Source: an uncultured Methanosarcinaceae archaeon
GTDB taxonomy: Archaea; Halobacteriota; Methanosarcinia; Methanosarcinales; Methanosarcinaceae
Assembly: GCA_963727895.1 (NCBI GenBank)
Contig: CAVSHT010000011.1
Span: 1-64,000 of the forward strand
Length of the DNA stretch: 64,000 bases
Direction: 5' to 3'
Shown here: in pieces, positions 930 to 64,000 of the stretch
How positions within the stretch are numbered: the first letter of the stretch is position 1
Layout: each line of letters opens with the position of its first letter
Translations under genes and position numbers: made by a program
Notes under the pieces: model-generated
The model's database searches: none
Seen by the model: the letters and a program-made list of their open reading frames with translations, nothing else
Told to the model about the DNA's origin: nothing

Positions 930-1368
930 AAATAATGGCTGTTTTTATAGAAAATAGTGGTAATTTTTCATTAACAATTCAATAAATTTGATTCAAAAAA
1001 CCATTTTTTTAAAAAATAAAAAACTTTTGTATAACACCAAATTCTATTTCTGGTTAACTTATTTTACTTTGCTTGTTTATTTTCCAATATATAAAAGATA
1101 TTTTTTGTAGTTTAAGCATTTAGATATGTAGATTTTTCAGGAATGCAGAATATTCATGCATAGTTATCATGCTGATTAATTTTAACTCACTTATAAGTAT
1201 TAGAACGTTGTATTTCCAACTGTGTAGTTTTTATTTAACTGTGTGAGCGCTAGCTTACCTCACTCAAAAATAAAGGGTTTTTGCACCCGAATTTGAGAAA
1301 ATAAAGCTTTTTTAAATTCCGTATAAAAAAAATTGCTTTTATTGTTTTTATTAGAGAGGTCTAATACA

Positions 1369-4320
1369 ATGAAGTTTCAAAATCTTAAAGCATGTGTAAA
1401 ACATGGATTATTTATCATACTCATTCTAAGTCTGATAGGGACTGCGCATGCAGGTACAGGCCAACTCGTATATTATAACTGGTCTGAAAATGCTGGAAAT
1501 ACTATAGTTGATAATTCGGGACACGGAAACAATGGAATAAATGATGGCAGTAAAACCTTTATCCTCCCAACCGGAGAAACGGCAAGGCATTTTAACGGGC
1601 AAAACCGGATAATAATGCCTAATAATGAGCAAATTGCGTTTACTGATCCCCATATCACGTTTGGAGTCTTTTTCCGTTATAACTCCAGCAATCCAGCTCG
1701 TAATACATATTTAGTTTCCAGGGGAGATACGGCATTCAGAATAAGCATTGACCATACAAATTCCATGCTGATGTATGATGTTTATGCAGATGGCCATGCA
1801 ATCCATGCTTCCAGTAGAACAGAAATACAACCTAATAAAGATTATGAAGCTATTGTAACATATGACGGCTCTCATGCTCAATTATACATCAATGGACTTG
1901 CTGATGAAGGAGGCGTAAATTACACAGCAGCAAATTTAGGTCCAGAGTATATAACAGATAACTGGACTATAGGCTCTTTCTCTGATGGCACTTGTGGACT
2001 AAACGGCACCGTATACGCTTTTTATTTGTATAATAAAACATTAGAATCATCCGATATATTAAATTTATATGCAAAAGACCTCCGCAGTATTAAGAATTTA
2101 AGTAAACCAGGTGGCATTGCTTTATCCTGGGATGATTCGGGACATATACAATCTTGTTATCAGTATTTGCCAATTTTCCAGAAGTATAACGCCACCTGCA
2201 CTATTAATGTAAATAATGTAAGTAATAGGAGACAGGCTGCACTTGAATTAAAAGAACTGGATGCACTGCATTCGGCTGGATGGGAAATAGCTCTGCATGG
2301 GTATAATCACGTAGATTCAGTTGGATTTCTGAATAGTAATACTCCTGATGTTTGGTTAAATCAGGAAATATTTCCTAATATTATAGAAATTACCCGTTAT
2401 GGTTATCCGGTTTACACTTTTGCGTATCCTTATTCAAGTAGAAATTCAGTTTCAGATGAAGCAATAGCTCCATATTTCCGGACTCTTAGAACGAGAACTC
2501 CCACGATAGTAAACGGGAATATAAATGAAACAGTCCTTGCGTACTATAATTGGGATGATACGCAACTTCTTTATGGTGTGGAAATCGATGACCAATCAAT
2601 CGGTGCAAACCTGCAATCTATAGAAAACGGAATCGATTACGCAATAAAAACAGGAAAAGTACTGGTATTATTTGGACATGCAATTACTCCTGATGTTACA
2701 GGGCCATACCAGACTTCAACGTCGAGACTAGATTCAATTCTAAGTTATACCAGTAAAAACGGTGGAGCATTTTATCGTATGGGAGATCTGGGAAACTCTT
2801 CCTGGAAACAGGTTCCCAGATTTTCTAACGTGATTGCAAATTATACAGTTTCTAGAAATAGTTTGCTGGCTGGGGAAAACGTAACTTTTGAGGATTGTAG
2901 TGTCAACCAGGCCACTGAACTGCTTAATTTTGGGGACGGTTCGCCTACTATCAATACTGCAAATGCAGTTCACACTTATAAAGAACCAGGAACTTATGAG
3001 GCTAATCTAACAGTAACAAATGAAGTTTCGAGCGATTCCATGCTCAAAACAATTAAAGTTATAAAGGCAGCACCGCTTGTAGCTGATTTTGCCAGTAATC
3101 GTACAGCTGGATCCAGGCCTCTAAGTGTGGCGTTTACAGATACATCAACTGGACTTCCAGCATCATGGGCTTGGAATTTTGGAGACGGAAAGACTTCAGC
3201 AGTCCAGAATCCAGTTCATGAGTATACAAGTGATGGAGTTTATTATGTCAGGTTGACAGTAACGAATAGTAAAGGATCAAATTCTACTCAAAAAATGAAT
3301 TATATAACAGTAGCAACGCAACATCTTTCATCTAATTTCCTCTCCAATGTAACAAGTGGAAATATTCCCTTAACGGTTCAGTTTACTGACAGCAGTACCG
3401 GGGTTCCAGTTTTATGGAACTGGAACTTTGGAGATGGATCCACTTCAACTGAGCAAAATCCAAAGCATACATATTTTTCAGCAGGGATTTATAACGTCGA
3501 TCTAGTGGTGAGCAATGCCGCTGGAAATTCTTCAAAAACGTCTACAATAACCGTGCTTGAGAATCGCGACTCAAGTAGCGGAAGCAGTGGTTCAGGTGGG
3601 GGTAGCAGTCACAGCAGCAGCGGAAGTAGCAGTTCAAGTGGGGGAGCAGGCGGTTCCCCAGAACCTCAAAGTAATGTTCAAGTAAAGGAACTTTCGCAGG
3701 CTTATATTTCAAGCGGGAATTCTGTGAAGTTTGATTTTCCAAATAATGCCACTAATATTGTTTATTTAAGTTTTGATTCAAAAAAGACTGCTGGCAAGAC
3801 AACAGCAACTGTTGAAATGCTGAAAAATAAATCTTCACTTTCGCCGGAAATGCCCGAAGGTAAAGTCTATAATTATCTGAATATCTGGGTTGGAAACAGT
3901 GGGTATGGAAGTACTGAAGGTAATCTTGAAAACGCAGTAATATGTTTCAAAGTTGAAAAATCCTGGATTCGGGATAAATGTATTGATAAGTCTTCAATTG
4001 CTCTTAACAGGTATAATGAGAATAAGTGGAATAAACTTCCAGCTGTTTTTCTCAGAGAAGATGATCAGTATCTGTATTTTACAGCAAAAACTCCAGGATT
4101 CTCGTCTTTTGCAATAACATGCAGGCTTACAGCAAAAGAAAATGTAATTGAAATAACACCTGCAGCTGAAGCTAATAATTCCGAAAATAATACTGGAAAC
4201 ATAGCAACAGAGGTTGAACATATTCCTGAACAAAAAGAAAAAACAAAAGGTATGCCGGGGTTTGAAATAATTTACTGCATAATAGGGTTGTCTGGAGTAC
4301 TCTTATTTAAGAAAAGGTAA
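1369..4320 (+). CDS. Cell-surface protein: LamG-like domain, polysaccharide deacetylase (CE4/NodB-like), 3 PKD, PGF-pre-PGF, PGF-CTERM anchor
   Basis: Signal peptide; LamG-like VTYDGS..LYING; deacetylase motifs LSWDD, WEIALHGYNH, FAYPY; PKD W.W.FGDG repeats; Ser/Gly linker then GGSPEPQSNV; C-terminal MPGF-TM-KKR. Confidence 0.85.
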   Translation: MKFQNLKACVKHGLFIILILSLIGTAHAGTGQLVYYNWSENAGNTIVDNSGHGNNGINDGSKTFILPTGETARHFNGQNRIIMPNNEQIAFTDPHITFGVFFRYNSSNPARNTYLVSRGDTAFRISIDHTNSMLMYDVYADGHAIHASSRTEIQPNKDYEAIVTYDGSHAQLYINGLADEGGVNYTAANLGPEYITDNWTIGSFSDGTCGLNGTVYAFYLYNKTLESSDILNLYAKDLRSIKNLSKPGGIALSWDDSGHIQSCYQYLPIFQKYNATCTINVNNVSNRRQAALELKELDALHSAGWEIALHGYNHVDSVGFLNSNTPDVWLNQEIFPNIIEITRYGYPVYTFAYPYSSRNSVSDEAIAPYFRTLRTRTPTIVNGNINETVLAYYNWDDTQLLYGVEIDDQSIGANLQSIENGIDYAIKTGKVLVLFGHAITPDVTGPYQTSTSRLDSILSYTSKNGGAFYRMGDLGNSSWKQVPRFSNVIANYTVSRNSLLAGENVTFEDCSVNQATELLNFGDGSPTINTANAVHTYKEPGTYEANLTVTNEVSSDSMLKTIKVIKAAPLVADFASNRTAGSRPLSVAFTDTSTGLPASWAWNFGDGKTSAVQNPVHEYTSDGVYYVRLTVTNSKGSNSTQKMNYITVATQHLSSNFLSNVTSGNIPLTVQFTDSSTGVPVLWNWNFGDGSTSTEQNPKHTYFSAGIYNVDLVVSNAAGNSSKTSTITVLENRDSSSGSSGSGGGSSHSSSGSSSSSGGAGGSPEPQSNVQVKELSQAYISSGNSVKFDFPNNATNIVYLSFDSKKTAGKTTATVEMLKNKSSLSPEMPEGKVYNYLNIWVGNSGYGSTEGNLENAVICFKVEKSWIRDKCIDKSSIALNRYNENKWNKLPAVFLREDDQYLYFTAKTPGFSSFAITCRLTAKENVIEITPAAEANNSENNTGNIATEVEHIPEQKEKTKGMPGFEIIYCIIGLSGVLLFKKR

Positions 4321-54885: not shown

Positions 54886-55134
54886 TTGAGAACCCATTAT
54901 ATTACTGAAAATAAATAATAATTTCCAGAGAACTTCTTGACTCTAAATTATTATTTAGTTAGTATCAAGTCTTGTTTCGGATGGAAAATATAAAATCCTT
55001 GATTGACTTTTTATCTTGAGCGCAAATGCTTGAGCTTTGGAGTCTGTTTAAAGCCGCATTCAATTTTTTTGCAGTGCAGGTTATATCACCGATTTCCCCC
55101 GGCTCAGCCATATGCAGTTGGAGGTATATTAATT

Positions 55135-56787
55135 ATGATATTGAACTCCGTCGGTGAATACTTTGAAAAACAGATGGCTGTAGACCCTGACCATGAATTT
55201 ATAATTTACCCGGATAGGAATCTTCGTTTTACTTATGGGCAATTCAATGAAAGGGTCAATAACCTTGCAAAAGGACTGCTGGCTATCGGAATAGAAAAAG
55301 GGTGACCATGTAGGAATCTGGGCAAAGAATGTTCCTGACTGGCTTACCTTCATGTTTGCCACGGCAAAGATCGGGGCAGTGCTTGTTACTGTAAATACTG
55401 CTTACAAGAGCCATGAAGTAGAATATGTGTTAAAACAGTCTGATATGAGAGCTCTGGCTCTTATTGATAGCTTCAGGGATGTTGATTACCTTGAAATAAT
55501 CAATGAGCTAATCCCTGAACTCAAAACTTCTGAAAGAGGGAGATTGAAAAGTAAAAACTTTCCCTATCTTAAGAGCATAATTTACGTAGGACAGGAAAAG
55601 CACCGGGGTATGTATAACACAAGTGAGCTTTTGCTCCTTGGCAGTCATTATCTTGATGACGAACTCCACGAAATTATGGTCTAGCGTCGACTGTGACGAT
55701 GTTGTCAATATGCAGTATACCTCAGGAACAACGGGATTTCCTAAAGGAGTCATGCTGACCCATAAAAATATATTGAACAATGGACTTTCTATCAGGAGAT
55801 CGCCAGAAGTTCACCATGTAGATAGACTCTGTTTTCCTGTGCCACTTTTTCACTGTTTCGGGATAGTACTCGGAGTCATGGCTATTCTGACTCATAGAGC
55901 AACACTTGTTATGCTCGAAATTTTTGACCCTTTAATGGTACTTGCTGCGGTACATAAAGAGAAATGTACGGCTCTTTACGGCGTGCCAACGATGTTTATT
56001 GCAGAGTATACGCATCCGATGTTTGATTTGTTTGACCTATCGTCTCTCAGAACAGGGATTATGGCAGGTTCGACCTGCCCTGTGGAAGCCATGAAAAAGG
56101 TCGTAAATGATATGCATTGCCATCAGATTACCAGTGTTTACGGACTTACGGAAGCATCTCCTGGTATGACTCAAACTACTGTGGATGATCCTCTAGAACT
56201 TAGAGTCGAAACTGTTGGCAAATGTTTTCCTGAGCGTAGAGGTAAGAGTTGTTGATCCTGATACCAATGAGCCAGTGCCCGTAAATGCTGCAGGAGAGAT
56301 ATGCTGTCGCGGGTATAATGTGATGAAAGGCTACTATAAGATGCCTGAAGAAACTAAAAAAGTTATAGATGAAGACGGCTGGCTTCACAGCGGAGATCTT
56401 GGAACCTGTGACGAAAAGGGTTATTACAGAATCACAGGCAGGATTAAGGACATGATTATCCGGGGAGGAGAAAACATATATCCAAGAGAGATTGAGGAAC
56501 TCCTTCTTACTATGTCCAGAGTTACAGATGTCCAGGTTGTAGGTATCCCTAACAAAAAATACGGGGAAATTGTAGGTGCCTTTGTGATTCTCGAAAAAAG
56601 TGTAGATATTACAGAAGCCGATATAAGGGATTATGCCTTAAGCAAGATCGCTCGCTATAAAGTTCCAAAGTATGTATTTATTGTAGAAGAATTTCCATTG
56701 ACAGCGAGTGGAAAGATTCAAAAATATAGGTTAAGGGAAATGGCTGTGGAACTTTGTAATAAGCAGAATGAAATAGCAGTTGATTAA
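55135..56787 (+). CDS. AMP-binding acyl-CoA synthetase (several frameshifts)
   Basis: Fragments join: [64 protein letters not shown]. Confidence 0.85.
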
Positions 56788-58017: not shown

Positions 58018-60006
58018 ATGAAAACAGAAAAACAAAAATTAATAACTCTACTTTTTTTATTTATATTAATAGGACAGATACTCCCCTTTGTAGAAGCAGC
58101 TCCTGTAGGGACATCTGAATCTACAGTTGTAGCAGCTGCAAAGAGTTGGCTTGGAGTTAAATCTGTTCATGGTGGCAACGACAGATCTGGCATTGATTGT
58201 TCTCACTTAGTATATCAAATATATAAAGAAGCTGGGGCTAAAGATATAATTTTCCAGAAGGTCCCCAGTATGAACAAAAATGCAGATTATGTTAAGACGA
58301 TTTCCCCCACTCCTGGAGATGTAATTTTTTGGCAAAAGGACGTAACCCAAAACGATAAAACATATTGGCTTGCCGCTCATGTGGGAATATACATAGGAAA
58401 CAATCAGTTTATAGACACGTCTTTTGATACAAAAAATGTCGCTATAGAAAGTATTAGTGGAATCTATAAAGATGGAATGCCATACTATGCAAGATGGACC
58501 CCTGCTGGAAGTGCTAATACACCTACACAGACATCCGATGCAATTGACAATAATGATGAAAGTGCTAATTCATCTACACAGATATCTGATGTAACTGACA
58601 ATAATGATGCCAATACACCTGCACAGACACCCGATGTAACTGCTGATAATAACGGTTCAAACCTACCAGTAGCTTCATTCTCTGCAACTCCCAATTCCGG
58701 AAATGCACCATTGAAGGTATCATTTACTGATAGCAGTACCGATGAAACTTCCTGGTTTTGGAAATTTGGAGACGGAAATACCTCAAATGAAAGAAATCCA
58801 ACACATAATTACTCTGAGGCAGGAAACTATACCGTTGTCCTGACAGTAAATAATGGAAATAACGCGAACTCAACAACTCTAAATATAATTGTGCAGCAGG
58901 CTCAGGATCAGGAAACTATTATTCCAGTAACTGATTTTAATGCAAATACAACTAGCGGGTATGCTCCTCTTTCCGTACAATATACAGATATCTCACAAAA
59001 TGAAAATGGATGGAATTGGGACTTTGGAGATGGAAATAACTCAACAGAGCAGAATCCAGTTCATACTTACTCTACAACAGGAACTTATACCGTTACCTTA
59101 ACTGCAACAAATGAAAACGGTACTTCATCAACAAAAAATGCTACAATAATTGTCACACAGCAAGACAGTTCAGACAGTTCAGACAGTGATAGTAGCAGTA
59201 GCAGTAGCAGTAGCAGTAGCAGTAGCAGTAGCAGTAGCAGTAGCAGTAGCAGTAGCAGTAGTGGCAGCAGTAGCAGCAGTGGTGGCGGTGTAGGTGGTTC
59301 CCCTGAGCCTGCAAGTAATGTTCAGGTAAAAGAGATTTCGCAGACTTTTATCCCCAGTGATAAGGAAATAACTTTTAATTTTACACAGAACACAACTTGT
59401 GTTGAATCAATAATATTCAAATTATCAAAAACCGTTGGAAAGACTACTACAATAGTAGAGGAACTGAAAAATAAGTCGACTCTGGTTTCTAAATTACCAG
59501 AAGGTATTGTTTACAAATCATTCAATATATGGGTTGGAAACGGCGGTTATGGTAATTCAAATAATATTGAAAATTCATCGGTCAATTTTAAGGTCAATAC
59601 CTCATGGATACAAGAAAATAATATAAACAAATCATCTATTACACTTAATATATACGATAGTATGAAAAAAGAATGGATAAGGCTTCCAACAAATATAACA
59701 GGTGAAGATAACAAATTTTTGCATTTCACAGCAAATGTTCCTGGATATTCCTTCTTCGCAATAACATGTACAAACAGCGAACATAATGCAATAACTACGA
59801 AACTTCCTCAAACAACCACAAACAATACTGAAAATAGTAATAAAAGCAAAAGAATTAGTACAGATTCTGCTACAGAAAATAATACAAGCACTATTGCAAG
59901 TAAAATAGCTGAAGAAAACAAAAAGACTTCAGGATTTAGTGTAATTAGTGGCATTATCTGTTTACTCTGTACTTTTTGTATAAAACTAAGGAAAGATAAA
60001 AAGTGA
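58018..60006 (+). CDS. Cell-surface protein: NlpC/P60 peptidase, 2 PKD, PGF-pre-PGF, C-terminal anchor
   Basis: Signal peptide; AKSWLG..GG..SGIDCSHLV, PGDVIFW, HVGIYIGNNQFID; three ~17-aa linker repeats; PKD W.FGDG; GGSPEPASNV; TSGF-TM-basic tail. Confidence 0.87.
   Translation: MKTEKQKLITLLFLFILIGQILPFVEAAPVGTSESTVVAAAKSWLGVKSVHGGNDRSGIDCSHLVYQIYKEAGAKDIIFQKVPSMNKNADYVKTISPTPGDVIFWQKDVTQNDKTYWLAAHVGIYIGNNQFIDTSFDTKNVAIESISGIYKDGMPYYARWTPAGSANTPTQTSDAIDNNDESANSSTQISDVTDNNDANTPAQTPDVTADNNGSNLPVASFSATPNSGNAPLKVSFTDSSTDETSWFWKFGDGNTSNERNPTHNYSEAGNYTVVLTVNNGNNANSTTLNIIVQQAQDQETIIPVTDFNANTTSGYAPLSVQYTDISQNENGWNWDFGDGNNSTEQNPVHTYSTTGTYTVTLTATNENGTSSTKNATIIVTQQDSSDSSDSDSSSSSSSSSSSSSSSSSSSSSSSSGSSSSSGGGVGGSPEPASNVQVKEISQTFIPSDKEITFNFTQNTTCVESIIFKLSKTVGKTTTIVEELKNKSTLVSKLPEGIVYKSFNIWVGNGGYGNSNNIENSSVNFKVNTSWIQENNINKSSITLNIYDSMKKEWIRLPTNITGEDNKFLHFTANVPGYSFFAITCTNSEHNAITTKLPQTTTNNTENSNKSKRISTDSATENNTSTIASKIAEENKKTSGFSVISGIICLLCTFCIKLRKDKK
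59191..59256 (+). repeat. (AGTAGC)11 hexamer repeat encoding poly-Ser linker
   Basis: Read directly from the sequence. Confidence 0.95.
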
Positions 60007-60590
60007 AATTTATTTAAGGCATTGAGGGTTATGGATCTTGTCTGGAAATTAAATGGTTTTGGTCCATATTGTCAGATAGGGAACTACCCTCTTGCTTACG
60101 ATTTTATAACTGATATAACAATATTTATAAAAATAATTATTTTAATAGCTAAAATTACTATTTTCCTAAAAGCTTTTGAATTTATTATACTCATTATTCG
60201 CCCTATTTATTCTCGAAAATTCCTGGTAAAAGTTTCATTCTTAATTTGCTGTTTTCTGAAAATAATCAAAACTTACAACAGAGTAAGTTCTCAAGTTTTT
60301 CCAAGCGTATTCTGGAGAATCAACTTATGAATAAGGAAGTAATCATTTACTCGGCTTTGAATTTTTATCTCTGTTGGCTTTATCGACTGCTTCATCAAAT
60401 TTTTAAAGTTAAATACTAGAGTGAGGATACTCTGTATCACAAAACACTAAAGTTGATATAAAAGTCTACTTAAAAATAGAGATATATTTTTTTTTAATTT
60501 AATGGTTTTCTTTATATAGAAAAGCATTGAGTAATGTTACTTTTAGATTATATTTCATAAAATTAAAAAAATAACTTCCTGAGGATTGGA

Positions 60591-62177
60591 ATGATAAATA
60601 TGAAATGCGATGAAACACGAAAAATTTGTGCTCTCACTGGAGTTTTAGGAATAATGATCTTGGTGCTTTTTATGCTGTCAAATATTGCAGGAGCATCTCC
60701 ATTTGCATATATTACAAACCAAGGCGACAACACTGTCTCTGTAATTGATACTGCAACTAACACTGTTACAGCTACTATACCAGTAGGAAGTGGCCCCCTT
60801 GCAATTGCAGTATCTCCAAATGAGACAAAGCTATATGTCGCAAATGCTTACGGCACCGCCACGACATCTGTGATTGATACAGCAAGTAATACTGTTACAG
60901 ATACTATACCTATAGGAGGAACTTGGCCTTATGGAGTTGCAGTTTCTCCAGATGGAACAAAATTGTATATTGCAAAAACCGATAGTAATACTGTCTCTAT
61001 AATCGATATTGCAACAAACACTGTTACAGCTACAGTAAACGTAGATGGTAGTCCTAGAGGAATTGTAGTTTCTCCAGATGGAAAAAAGTTATACGTAACA
61101 AATTATGACAGTAACTGTGTTTCTGTAATCGATACTGCAACAGACACTGTTACAGCCACAGTGAATGTAGGAAATTATCCCTGTGGAATTGCAGTCAGTC
61201 CAGATGGAAAAAAGGTATATGTAACTAATGCCTTCGATGATGACACTGTATATGTCATTGATACAGCGACTAACAGTGTTACAGCTACTGTACCTGTAGG
61301 GTATAGACCCCTTGGAGTTGCAGTCAGTCCAGATGGAAAAGAGGTATACGTAGCTAACAACGGCAACAATACAATCTCAATAATTGACGCAGAAACTAAT
61401 ACTGTTACAGCTACAGTAAACGTAGGATATGCACCTGAAGGAGTTGCAGTTACTCCAGATGATTCAAAAGTATATGTGGCGAATTACGGAAGCAATAATG
61501 TCTCTGTAATCGACACAGTTACAAATAATGTCTCATCCTTGAATGTGGGAAATCGTCCTATTGCCATTGGAAAATTTATAGGGTCACTCTCAGTACAACC
61601 AGTGCTTCCTATTGCAAATTTCAGTACTAATCTAACCAGCGATTATGCTTCCCTAACTGTACAGTTTACAGATACCTCTCAAAATGCAACTTCATGGAAC
61701 TGGGACTTTGGAGATGGAACAAACTCAACTGAACAGAATCCTGTTCATGCTTACTCTACAACAGGAAACTATACGGTTAATCTGACAGTATCCAATGCAA
61801 ACGGTACAAGCTCAACATCAAGTACAATTAATGTTTCAACAAAACCTGTACTTCCTGTTGCTGACTTCAGTGCTAATATAACTAGTGGCTATGCACCTAT
61901 GACAGTTTCATATACTGATACAAGCACGGGAACGCCTAATTCATGGAAATGGAATTTTGGAGATGGATCTCCTCTGGTAACTAAGTATAATCCAACGTAC
62001 ACATATTCAAAAGCTGGCACTTATACAGTAAAAGAAACCGTGAGTAATGCAGCTGGCAAGGATACGGAGATAAATACAAATTATATAACTGTTACTGCTC
62101 CTCTGCAAACTCCAGTTGCTATTATCAGTATCCACAACTCTAGGAAAAGCTCCACTGAAAGTACAGTTCAACTGTAA
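60591..62177 (+). CDS. YVTN beta-propeller plus PKD surface protein, C-terminally truncated
   Basis: Signal peptide; seven ~42-aa YV(T/A)N..VSVIDTAT repeats; two PKD; start of a third PKD (GKAPLKVQF) is out of frame. Confidence 0.88.
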   Translation: MINMKCDETRKICALTGVLGIMILVLFMLSNIAGASPFAYITNQGDNTVSVIDTATNTVTATIPVGSGPLAIAVSPNETKLYVANAYGTATTSVIDTASNTVTDTIPIGGTWPYGVAVSPDGTKLYIAKTDSNTVSIIDIATNTVTATVNVDGSPRGIVVSPDGKKLYVTNYDSNCVSVIDTATDTVTATVNVGNYPCGIAVSPDGKKVYVTNAFDDDTVYVIDTATNSVTATVPVGYRPLGVAVSPDGKEVYVANNGNNTISIIDAETNTVTATVNVGYAPEGVAVTPDDSKVYVANYGSNNVSVIDTVTNNVSSLNVGNRPIAIGKFIGSLSVQPVLPIANFSTNLTSDYASLTVQFTDTSQNATSWNWDFGDGTNSTEQNPVHAYSTTGNYTVNLTVSNANGTSSTSSTINVSTKPVLPVADFSANITSGYAPMTVSYTDTSTGTPNSWKWNFGDGSPLVTKYNPTYTYSKAGTYTVKETVSNAAGKDTEINTNYITVTAPLQTPVAIISIHNSRKSSTESTVQL

Positions 62178-62563: not shown

Positions 62564-64000
62564 ATGAAAAATTCAAAAACTATCATGGTAATATGTATCC
62601 TCATTCTTTTTTTTCTTGTGTTAAGTAGCTCTACCGCTTTGGCGGCGAATATCGTAATTGACAAGCAAGCTGGATCAGATGGATCAAACGTTTTTCACAC
62701 GCCCAATTATGCAAATGATGCAGCTTGCATTCAAGTGGCACTAGATCAATCAAAAAGTGGAGATACGATTACTATACGCAAAGGAGATTATTATATCACA
62801 AAAGGAATTTCTCAAAAAAATAAAAATCTGAATCTAATAGGCGAAGGGAAAGTAACTCTTCACATTAAGACTTCTAGTAAAGAAATTAACGATATTTATT
62901 TTGGCGGTTCACTAATCACAAGCAAAATCCTCTCTACTAATGTTAAAAAAGACTCTTCTAAAGTGATTTTAACTGATGCTTTTAAAGTCCGCAAAAATGA
63001 CTTGATTAAAATTTGGAAAAATATTCAGTGGTGTCCTTTAAATTATCCTGATAATTACCCCAATCAAATGACAGGGGAAATATATGCTGTTAAAAGTGTA
63101 GATGGAAATGTCGTTACCTTAAATCAACCAATTCTTAGGAACTACAACTTATCTGAGACTGTAAAGGTTGAAGTGTATAGGCCTGTTGAAATAAATATAA
63201 AGAATATAAGGCTAGAGGATACAGGCGCGACGATGTTACATCATGGACTGGCTATGCAATATTGTAAAGACAGCTCAGCCACTAACTCCTGGTTCAATAA
63301 TAACGGATTTGGTGCTATTTGTTTATATTCCTGTTTTAATGTAAGTGTTAATAATAATAAAATTTACAATTCGGTTCGTCCCAATTGTGGATACGGTGTC
63401 GACGTAAGTAGCGGTTCAGCTTTTGTAAATATTGAAAATAATCACATAGAAAATTGCAGGCATGCTATAACAGGTAATTCAGCTGAACTTAAATCTCTAA
63501 ATCGAGATGTCTTTATCGCTTATAACACCTTGATCGGCGCTAAGATCACTGGTTCCAATGTTGTTGATGCTCACGTAGATACCATTAATTTTGTTGTAAC
63601 TAAAAATAAGATCTACCCACAAATAGCAGCTGATACCCCCAAGTATTATGCATCTGCAAATTATCGGCGCATACAAGAACTTCCATACTATTTTGCATTT
63701 GCAGATGGGACACAACAATCCACTTTTTCTAACAATTATGTTTATGGAGGATTTGGAGGTATATTTAAACGTGGAACCTTAAATGGTGGAGTACACATTT
63801 ACGAAAATAATACATTTACTGACATATCAAGTAATATGTATGAGGGAGGAAATGGAACAGATAATACACTTATTATAAGAAATAATACTCAAAACAGTGG
63901 AATGCATGGAATTATTTTCCCATTCCATGGAAGTTTCAAGAATATATTAATAAGTGGAAACACTTTTAGCAATCTCTCATATCAAGGAATGTATCAGAAG
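62564..64000 (+). CDS. Secreted right-handed beta-helix (pectin-lyase-like) protein, partial
   Basis: GGAG RBS, signal peptide MKNSKTIMVICILILFFLVLSSSTALA, IQVALD..SGDTITIRKGDY cap, Asn-rich NN.I repeats; no stop seen before the window end. Confidence 0.8.
   Translation, partial: MKNSKTIMVICILILFFLVLSSSTALAANIVIDKQAGSDGSNVFHTPNYANDAACIQVALDQSKSGDTITIRKGDYYITKGISQKNKNLNLIGEGKVTLHIKTSSKEINDIYFGGSLITSKILSTNVKKDSSKVILTDAFKVRKNDLIKIWKNIQWCPLNYPDNYPNQMTGEIYAVKSVDGNVVTLNQPILRNYNLSETVKVEVYRPVEINIKNIRLEDTGATMLHHGLAMQYCKDSSATNSWFNNNGFGAICLYSCFNVSVNNNKIYNSVRPNCGYGVDVSSGSAFVNIENNHIENCRHAITGNSAELKSLNRDVFIAYNTLIGAKITGSNVVDAHVDTINFVVTKNKIYPQIAADTPKYYASANYRRIQELPYYFAFADGTQQSTFSNNYVYGGFGGIFKRGTLNGGVHIYENNTFTDISSNMYEGGNGTDNTLIIRNNTQNSGMHGIIFPFHGSFKNILISGNTFSNLSYQGMYQK

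Follow-up and report, generated by a model that had tools for sequence, protein, structure and literature searches.

Layout, fold and active site of the peptidase

The window, a stretch of 64,000 nucleotides of contig CAVSHT010000011.1 (assembly GCA_963727895.1) from an uncultured Methanosarcinaceae archaeon, encodes at 58018–60006 of the plus strand a predicted surface-anchored peptidase of the NlpC/P60 (C40) family. The open reading frame (ORF) is uninterrupted, has no internal stop and specifies 662 residues, the stop codon being included in these coordinates; all features of the protein given below lie on the same strand. The N-terminus displays a Sec-type signal peptide, predicted by eye, which spans residues 1–27 (58018–58098) and comprises MKTEKQK, a hydrophobic core and VEA/A, with a matching layout in five orthologues. 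It is followed by the catalytic head at residues 28–162 (58099–58503), in which Pfam NLPC_P60 (PF00877) matches residues 49–150 with an E-value of 3.5e-14 and 53.1 bits (cut-off 23). A low-complexity linker rich in Thr, Asn and Asp, with about three imperfect repeats (residues 163–215; 58504–58662) and no family match in Pfam or NCBIfam, leads into two PKD domains. The first occupies residues ~216–293 (58663–58896) and is matched by PF00801 at 220–292 and by PF18911 at 225–287, and the second PKD stretch covers residues ~299–380 (58912–59157); PKD_4 matches two stretches of the protein with E 4.9e-35. Residues 299–379 of the second domain align with the PKD domain of the 'Surface layer protein' of PDB entry 1l0q (E 3e-20), the source of which we take to be Methanosarcina mazei. 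The next linker, at residues 381–429 (59158–59304), is rich in Ser, Asp and Gly, varies in length between strains and contains an unbroken run of 24 Ser at residues 392–415 (59191–59262). The PGF-pre-PGF domain (TIGR04213) occupies residues 430–583 (59305–59766), just ahead of the C-terminal tail, with E 3.3e-56 and 189.5 bits (cut-off 28) and the same coordinates in a genome-wide scan. A membrane-proximal linker rich in Thr, Asn and Ser (residues 584–637; 59767–59928) connects it to the C-terminal sorting or anchor signal at residues 638–662 (59929–60003), which is composed of SGF, a hydrophobic helix and the basic end KLRKDKK. NLPC_P60, PKD and PGF-pre-PGF are the only families detected in the protein by Pfam and NCBIfam. 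An earlier note, made from the letters of this stretch alone, had placed the head at the distal tip of a PKD/poly-Ser stalk. This arrangement is borne out by the N-terminal position of the head opposite a C-terminal hydrophobic tail, and by the two PKD domains and the 24-Ser run. The run itself occurs only in the window copy, the 41 longer homologues having runs of nine Ser at most, and contigs of relatives from RNA libraries have 70 nucleotides in the Ser tract where the window has 112. Since the run is unique to the window copy and these contigs are shorter, the Ser linker appears to be a length-variable simple repeat.

The PGF-type anchor that the same note proposed stands in part. The PGF-pre-PGF domain, the helix and the basic end are all present, but the sorting tripeptide of the window protein is SGF, not PGF, and the short PGF-CTERM model does not match the tail even at E ≤ 10. 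Among homologues P0001–P0042 the tripeptide is PGF in 32, SGF in eight and neither in two. Archaeosortase A (TIGR04125) is encoded elsewhere in the genome, at C19:10791-11624 (E 3.9e-80, 269.5 bits, cut-off 75), and was found in 58 of 59 genomes of the genus. The SGF signal would either be processed and lipid-anchored by archaeosortase A or serve as a plain transmembrane helix.

An AlphaFold2 (AF2) model of residues 25–170 reaches a predicted local distance difference test score (pLDDT) of 92.1 and a predicted template modelling score (pTM) of 0.87. It displays a papain-like α+β fold in which a helix begins at model residue 37, corresponding to Cys61. With Foldseek, 63 PDB entries match at E ≤ 0.001; the listed ones belong to the NlpC/P60 family. 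The top matches, namely SagA, Acd24020, MepS, LytE, DPP-VI, CwlO and the Trichomonas NlpC, have TM-scores of 0.6–0.7 at 22–29% identity and are all peptidoglycan peptidases, in agreement with phmmer against the PDB. The motifs read by the earlier note as catalytic are present as claimed: GIDCS with Cys61 (codon 58198–58200), HVGIY with His121 (58378–58380) and FID with Asp133 (58414–58416). Cys61 and His121 are found in 132 of 132 full-length family domains. Position 133 is more variable, with His in 67 of these domains, Asp in 60, Gly in four and another residue in one; in the alignment to Spr/MepS, Asp133 takes the place of the third catalytic His (His131 of Spr), to which Asp is a derived, recurrent alternative. 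The profile, the fold and the Cys-His dyad with a third polar residue place the protein in the NlpC/P60 family (PF00877; MEROPS C40).

The canonical γ-D-Glu DL-endopeptidases carry a further signature. In YkfC it comprises Tyr226, Trp228, Asp237 and Ser239 in addition to the triad, and the Asp and Ser that flank the catalytic Cys hold the α-amino and α-carboxyl groups of γ-D-Glu, according to Xu et al. 2010 (PMC2954226). The window head retains this pair as Asp60 and Ser62, which are invariant in 128 of 128 family domains, whereas the Tyr, Trp and Arg of the signature are missing. The non-canonical residues of the head are Ser49 (58162–58164), His51, His63 and Gln80. As three defining residues fail, the protein is not filed in the canonical γ-D-Glu endopeptidase class. 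The site that the earlier note had called intact-looking is thus intact in its catalytic triad but replaced at Tyr, Trp and Arg of the substrate site. Two additional changes accompany these substitutions. The Gly that follows Cys-Ser, found in 100 of 112 outgroup domains, is replaced by His63 in 127 of 128 family domains, and an eight-residue hairpin with conserved Tyr116/Trp117 is inserted just ahead of the catalytic His, within a family-specific hairpin segment at residues 107–117.

The non-synonymous to synonymous substitution ratio (dN/dS), computed pairwise for 15 pairs of six anchored orthologues, ranges over 0.07–0.22 in the head, 0.12–0.30 in the PKD pair and 0.14–0.32 in the PGF-pre-PGF domain, so that constraint is strongest in the head. 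Given the invariance of Cys, His, Asp60 and Ser62 and its dN/dS of 0.07–0.22, the head is probably a working enzyme, with a pocket that is probably not the canonical L-Ala-γ-D-Glu pocket.

Family, bacterial descent and grafting onto a native stalk

The organism is a Methanosarcina, as the earlier note had supposed, and every named homologue of the head comes from this genus. Three architectures are distinguished. Homologues of 364–1159 residues account for 41 matches with 66–95% identity over the head; 40 of them carry PKD domains and most a PGF tail. The 113 shorter matches are mostly 162-residue proteins annotated as 'C40 family peptidase' that consist of a signal peptide and the head alone, and this free form is the commonest. 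The third architecture (324–421 residues) displays a YVTN β-propeller ahead of the NlpC/P60 head. The window genome possesses a second copy at C5:125189-125599 (L001 1369-1857; also placed at C5:125246-125560), a free form of 162 residues with signal peptide and head and with Asp at the third catalytic position. This copy adjoins an HD-domain-like gene and a gene similar to Fpo/Nuo subunit N.

The head was searched against 284 genomes of the order. Matches were found in 36 of them, all of one genus (35 of the 58 other genomes of the genus and the window genome), and in none of the 225 genomes of the 30 other genera. Among the genus genomes listed, 22 have no match, 17 of these being rated 99% complete. 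Short-form copies with one to four in-frame stops occur in five genomes (G005, G018, G242, G260 and G264), which suggests that the family is decaying in some species; in this genus, translation might pass through a lone in-frame TAG. On a rough species-tree stand-in, a single-gene archaeosortase A tree of 57 rows, most clades contain the family, and in one clade of 18 genomes 16 lack any copy. Two distant NlpC/P60-like matches fall outside the family. One is in G261 (C42:1728-2051; 30% identity, in a frame of 258 residues); the other, in another genus (G039:C226:19715-19960), scores 20.4 bits, under the Pfam cut-off.

Against 1.84 billion representative proteins the head yields 4530 matches at E ≤ 0.001 and seven at E ≤ 1e-30. 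Among the matches listed that come from named genomes, one is a 165-residue homologue of an 'uncultured Methanosarcinales' archaeon with 51% identity, and the others are bacterial with 30–41% identity, including Clostridia, Bacillota, Sulfurovum and others. Trees were built with FastTree from 253 domains and with IQ-TREE from 97 domains. The Methanosarcina proteins form one group together with P0045 and the 165-residue 'uncultured Methanosarcinales archaeon' protein (L004), with a support of 90 in the Shimodaira–Hasegawa-like approximate likelihood ratio test (SH-aLRT). Adjoining this group are P0050/P0290 and a clade of ten proteins, the nearest relatives that carry the active-site Tyr, and several of the ten have lipoprotein-like N-termini; a look-up of P0050 in Atlas returned bacterial NlpC/P60 clusters only, a lead and no more. 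A branch with support 98 separates the archaeal set and its neighbours from the canonical bacterial domains. Since the tree nests the family within bacterial NlpC/P60 and the named relatives are bacterial, a bacterial descent of the head, as the earlier note had suggested, is supported by both tree and profile search, although the transfer would be old. Indeed, the GC match (ORF 0.36, genome 0.366), the spread over most clades, the gaps, the decayed copies and the two upstream genes, the only ones that the window locus shares with the G273 locus, together point to an old acquisition followed by vertical inheritance and repeated loss. A recent transfer was considered and rejected on the same GC values.

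The basal grade of the archaeal group is made up of free short forms that have His at position 133. Anchored forms lie nested inside the group, divided in one of the trees between a clade of 14 and a clade of three, and the propeller fusions form one nested clade with support 95. The stalk itself is of a type common to at least 12 further proteins of the genome, which contains 16 PGF-pre-PGF matches (13 of full length), and the tails of the other stalk proteins are PGF, PDF or PSF. Other heads carried on this stalk include a Laminin_G_3 module with a CE4 polysaccharide deacetylase, encoded at 1333–4320 of the window, and two NosD/β-helix heads. Because the free form is basal, the anchored forms are nested and the stalk carries other heads, a grafting of the head onto a native stalk, also proposed in the earlier note, is supported. 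The likeness to the surface proteins of Methanosarcina, with their YVTN, PKD and PGF-pre-PGF/PGF-CTERM tails, resides in the stalk and tail, which are of this native type, and a sister architecture joins the same NlpC/P60 head to a YVTN propeller. The window protein differs from them in that its head is a bacterial-type peptidase and not a propeller, β-helix or lectin-like module.

The CE4 protein at 1333–4320 (plus strand) is a surface protein of 995 residues with three PKD domains, PGF-pre-PGF and a PGF tail, its head being composed of Laminin_G_3 and CE4 (PF01522, E 1.6e-7). In bacteria the CE4 family often modifies peptidoglycan or chitin; the deacetylase of the window might target the GalNAc polymer in the matrix of its own cell.

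Candidate substrates of the head

Bacterial peptidoglycan stem peptides, or fragments of them, are proposed as the likeliest substrate, a tentative assignment that we hold with slightly less than even confidence. Peptidoglycan is the most economical choice because all characterised relatives cut it, murein is not made by the Methanosarcina host, the family is accessory and in places decaying, as weapons are, a free form exists and precedents are available. According to this proposal the NlpC/P60 domain would have been taken from bacteria long ago by the Methanosarcina lineage, at first as a free secreted domain of ~160 residues. In the window protein the head would be exported by the Sec signal peptide and kept off the membrane by a stalk of ~500 residues, made of the two PKD domains, Ser/Thr-rich linkers that are probably glycosylated, and the PGF-pre-PGF domain, while the C-terminal PGF-type signal, here SGF, would tether the protein. 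Cys61, His121-activated and Asp133-oriented, would attack the amide bond beside a γ-glutamyl-type residue, whose α-amino and α-carboxyl groups would be held by Asp60 and Ser62. The free 162-residue paralogue on C5 could reach neighbouring bacterial walls. The tethered form would trim wall fragments, muropeptides and necromass at the envelope, or contacting walls when the cell is not encased in matrix; for this form such fragment or contact-wall trimming is more likely than long-range killing. The earlier note had read the protein as an enzyme acting on the walls of neighbouring bacteria. That reading keeps the enzyme-like conservation, the bacterial descent and the grafting on its side, but it must now accommodate a remodelled pocket, the lack of a wall-binding module and the lack of a companion lysozyme, amidase or LysM protein.

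The bacterial DL-endopeptidases (Enterococcus faecium SagA, 6b8c; Clostridioides difficile Acd24020, 7cfl; Escherichia coli MepS/Spr, 2k1g; Bacillus subtilis LytE/CwlO; YkfC/DPP-VI) have the same fold and the same order of Cys, His and third residue as the window head, and the D-C-S motif and the GD and HVGIY blocks are common to both. In contrast, the window head lacks SH3b and LysM, has its Tyr, Trp and Arg replaced, carries a His two residues after the Cys, a hairpin and Asp as third residue, and belongs to a host without murein. The NlpC/P60 enzymes of Trichomonas vaginalis (6bim, 8ev4) provide a precedent for lateral bacterial genes in a host without peptidoglycan, with expansion of paralogues. 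They are reported to be used against bacteria and to be active on peptidoglycan (PMC6299479, PMC10461829), whereas their host is eukaryotic and the window protein is known from sequence and has a non-canonical pocket. A second precedent is the archaeal hydrolases of Strock et al. 2025 (PMC12352652), which include the M23 enzymes Woldo/Danwoldo of Halogranum salarium and SH3_3+NLPC_P60 proteins of other archaea. These are likewise bacterial wall-hydrolase domains in archaea, secreted, patchily distributed and read as weapons, and patchiness is described there as typical of weaponised peptidoglycan hydrolases. That survey, however, required a peptidoglycan-binding domain, which the window protein, with its archaeal-type stalk and anchor, does not possess. 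The word 'Methanosarcina' is absent from its main text; 12 of the 13 supplement files together contain it once, in a remark by a reviewer that does not report a hit. The absence of the window family from the survey is explained by its definition of a modular hydrolase, under which the family does not fall.

Several observations weigh against peptidoglycan as the substrate, beginning with the pocket. When the head is aligned without gaps to Spr, SagA and Acd24020, Ser49 falls on the canonical Tyr, which lies 12 residues ahead of the Cys and contacts γ-D-Glu. The active-site Tyr is found in none of the 128 family domains, as opposed to all ten of the sister clade and 110 of 112 further outgroup domains. 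The position of YkfC Trp228, ten residues before the Cys and part of the S1/S2 wall, is occupied by His51, a residue that 109 of 128 family domains share; in the outgroup this position is Tyr in 59, Trp in 26, Phe in 15 and Leu in seven. The position of YkfC Arg255, which pairs with the Asp in a salt bridge, corresponds to Gln80, although the alignment here is less secure than at Cys61; the family has Gln in 90 domains, Glu in 17, Met in 12 and Leu in nine, and the outgroup has Arg in 101 of 112. For proteins of this kind the authors of PMC2954226 suggested lost activity or other substrates (section 3.8). In CdCwlT33800, mutants of the salt bridge that involves Arg259 lose most activity (PMC12542765). 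The same source reports that the Tyr-to-Ala mutant retains 49.6% of lytic activity, Tyr-to-Phe 9.9% and the third-residue mutant H308A 92%; since Tyr-to-Ala kept 49.6%, the loss of Tyr need not abolish cleavage of peptidoglycan. Beyond the pocket, none of the three architectures contains a peptidoglycan-binding domain (SH3b, LysM, PG_binding), and searches of the genome, at 84% completeness, did not find LysM, Amidase_2 or GH25. The CE4 deacetylase and NosD/β-helix heads on the same stalk look as if they could work on the cell's own polysaccharide matrix. The anchored form sits within the cell's own envelope, and the tethered head may not clear the S-layer and methanochondroitin, to judge from the dimensions of the envelope. 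A full-text literature search returned no biochemical data on any member of the family and no description of it; in public annotation its members already bear the names 'C40 family peptidase' or 'PGF-pre-PGF domain-containing protein'. A broader set of peptidoglycan enzymes in the genome was also considered, but the sole PG_binding_1 match in the genome lies in a small ORF without a signal peptide and is not counted as support. This ORF, at C13:125055-125495 on the minus strand (L157 4055-4495), encodes 146 residues (E 1.1e-9) between two [NiFe]-hydrogenase clusters, and M. acetivorans also matches PG_binding_1.

The same pocket could instead have been rebuilt after transfer to cut an amide or isopeptide link in the Methanosarcina envelope itself, such as a γ-glutamyl-lysine-type cross-link of surface proteins or a surface-protein processing site, with a role in cell separation, disaggregation or matrix turnover. 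We regard such a self-directed enzyme as unlikely, though well worth weighing. It would account for the remodelling of S1/S2 at the base of the archaeal clade, where Tyr is present in 0 of 128 domains as opposed to 120 of 122 in sister group and outgroup together, Trp becomes His, Arg becomes Gln, Gly becomes His63 and the eight-residue hairpin is added. It would also fit the strong purifying selection on the head, the long inheritance within the genus, the missing peptidoglycan-binding module and the tether to the own surface on a stalk that bears CE4-deacetylase and β-helix heads as well. A core envelope function sits oddly, however, with a family for which 22 of the listed genus genomes (58 others in all), many of them 99% complete, gave no match, and which is decaying in five. 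The free secreted form, moreover, is ancestral and still the commonest, and no candidate substrate gene co-varies with the family, the poly-γ-glutamate genes being the only ones searched and not found. We know of no peptide-containing envelope polymer in Methanosarcina, methanochondroitin being a pure polysaccharide. A broader version of this proposal holds that murein L-Ala-γ-D-Glu is no longer recognised and that an archaeal target is cut, either a hitherto undescribed peptide or isopeptide cross-link of the host envelope (which would make the enzyme a 'disaggregatase' at the level of proteins) or the γ-Glu peptide of the pseudomurein of rival methanogens (which would make it a weapon of one archaeon against another); it too appears rather improbable. 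The changes it invokes are Tyr to Ser, Asn or Val, Trp to His, Arg to Gln, Gly to His and the addition of the hairpin with Tyr116, while Cys-His, Asp and Ser are kept, and with the same reserve these could amount to such a rebuilding.

A foreign γ-glutamyl polymer other than murein, either the poly-γ-glutamate capsule or slime of Bacillota living nearby or the γ-Glu-containing pseudomurein peptide of competing Methanobacteriales, is a still less probable target. The digester and sludge habitat is rich in neighbours of both kinds, and the patchy, accessory distribution is compatible with it, but the protein has no pseudomurein- or capsule-binding module in Pfam or NCBIfam and all its nearest solved structures are murein peptidases. 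Pseudomurein, in addition, contains L-Glu, whereas the kept residues are known from the recognition of D-Glu. The gene of B. subtilis PgdS presumably adjoins the operon for poly-γ-glutamate synthesis; in the window genome, by contrast, the synthesis genes PgsB (TIGR04012) and CapA (PF09587) were not found at 84% completeness, while the CapA search did match the control genome of M. acetivorans. Poly-γ-glutamate as a self substrate is not supported by these searches. PgdS (PMC5880399) nevertheless demonstrates that NlpC/P60 enzymes cutting poly-γ-glutamate exist, its domain acting on γ-glutamyl amide bonds outside peptidoglycan, so that the fold can change its target. The retention of Asp60 and Ser62 alongside changes at the Tyr and Trp that contact L-Ala/D-Glu (PMC2954226) would suit a polymer of this type. 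Least probable of all, and in our judgement very doubtful, is a weak or dead head that serves as a binding or adhesion module, for instance to keep hold of bacteria in syntrophic aggregates. In its favour, the head has neither the Tyr of the oxyanion hole nor the Asp-Arg salt bridge, NlpC/P60 domains without catalytic function are known (the fold matches include RipD) and the PKD display architecture is adhesin-like. Yet Cys61 and His121 persist in 132 of 132 domains, while the degenerate domains of the outgroup lose the Cys (100 of 112 keep it); no other part of the protein is as constrained as the head, and the ancestral and commonest form is a free secreted domain that has nothing to anchor.

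Cleavage of bacterial peptidoglycan thus remains the favoured, tentative reading. Methanosarcina, a model methanogen amenable to genetics, shares digesters, sludge and soils with closely packed bacteria, and a conserved, secreted and surface-displayed wall peptidase of bacterial type offers a handle on the dealings of an archaeon with its neighbours, be it killing, feeding on necromass or holding on. Archaeal peptidoglycan hydrolases were shown only in 2025 and only for enzymes with wall-binding modules (PMC12352652), a definition outside which the Methanosarcina family falls. Restricted to one genus among the genomes searched, with three architectures and a rebuilt pocket, the family would either widen the archaeal antibacterial repertoire or represent a wall enzyme of bacterial origin that has switched substrate.

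Neighbouring genes and environmental occurrence

In four of five other genomes the anchored gene is embedded in the order Kup, MatE, MarR, peptidase gene, UPF0047 and PurF, and in the fifth (L086) the UPF0047 and PurF side alone is kept. The MarR-family regulator lies directly upstream on the same strand in these four genomes (L084 6859-7344, L085 7120-7608, L087 10304-10792 and L088 6493-6960). In the window, the AT-rich 1.2 kb that precede the peptidase gene show no MarR gene. The neighbourhood was considered as a guide to function, but the Kup/MatE/MarR/UPF0047/PurF context is uninformative and the window neighbourhood differs from it.

DNA nearly identical to the locus occurs in soil, wetland, freshwater, sludge and digester metagenomes. 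Three RNA libraries, each from a different study, yielded contigs over 58096–59952 with ~90–99% likeness, and none of these contigs extends over 59968–60600, which a DNA run covers. This pattern is a weak hint that the ORF is transcribed; stretches without cover in the RNA contigs are not taken as absence.

Downstream of the peptidase gene, 60591–62177 (plus strand) encodes a secreted seven-bladed YVTN propeller (TIGR02276, E 1.6e-99) that also carries two PKD domains and lacks a recognisable anchor. It is followed at 62564–64000 (plus strand) by a secreted right-handed β-helix protein that runs off the window; neither gene is kept beside the orthologues in the five other genomes. Upstream, at 55003–56787 (plus strand), an AMP-binding, acyl-CoA synthetase-like gene is split over four overlapping frames, which reflects either a pseudogene or frameshifts of the assembly.

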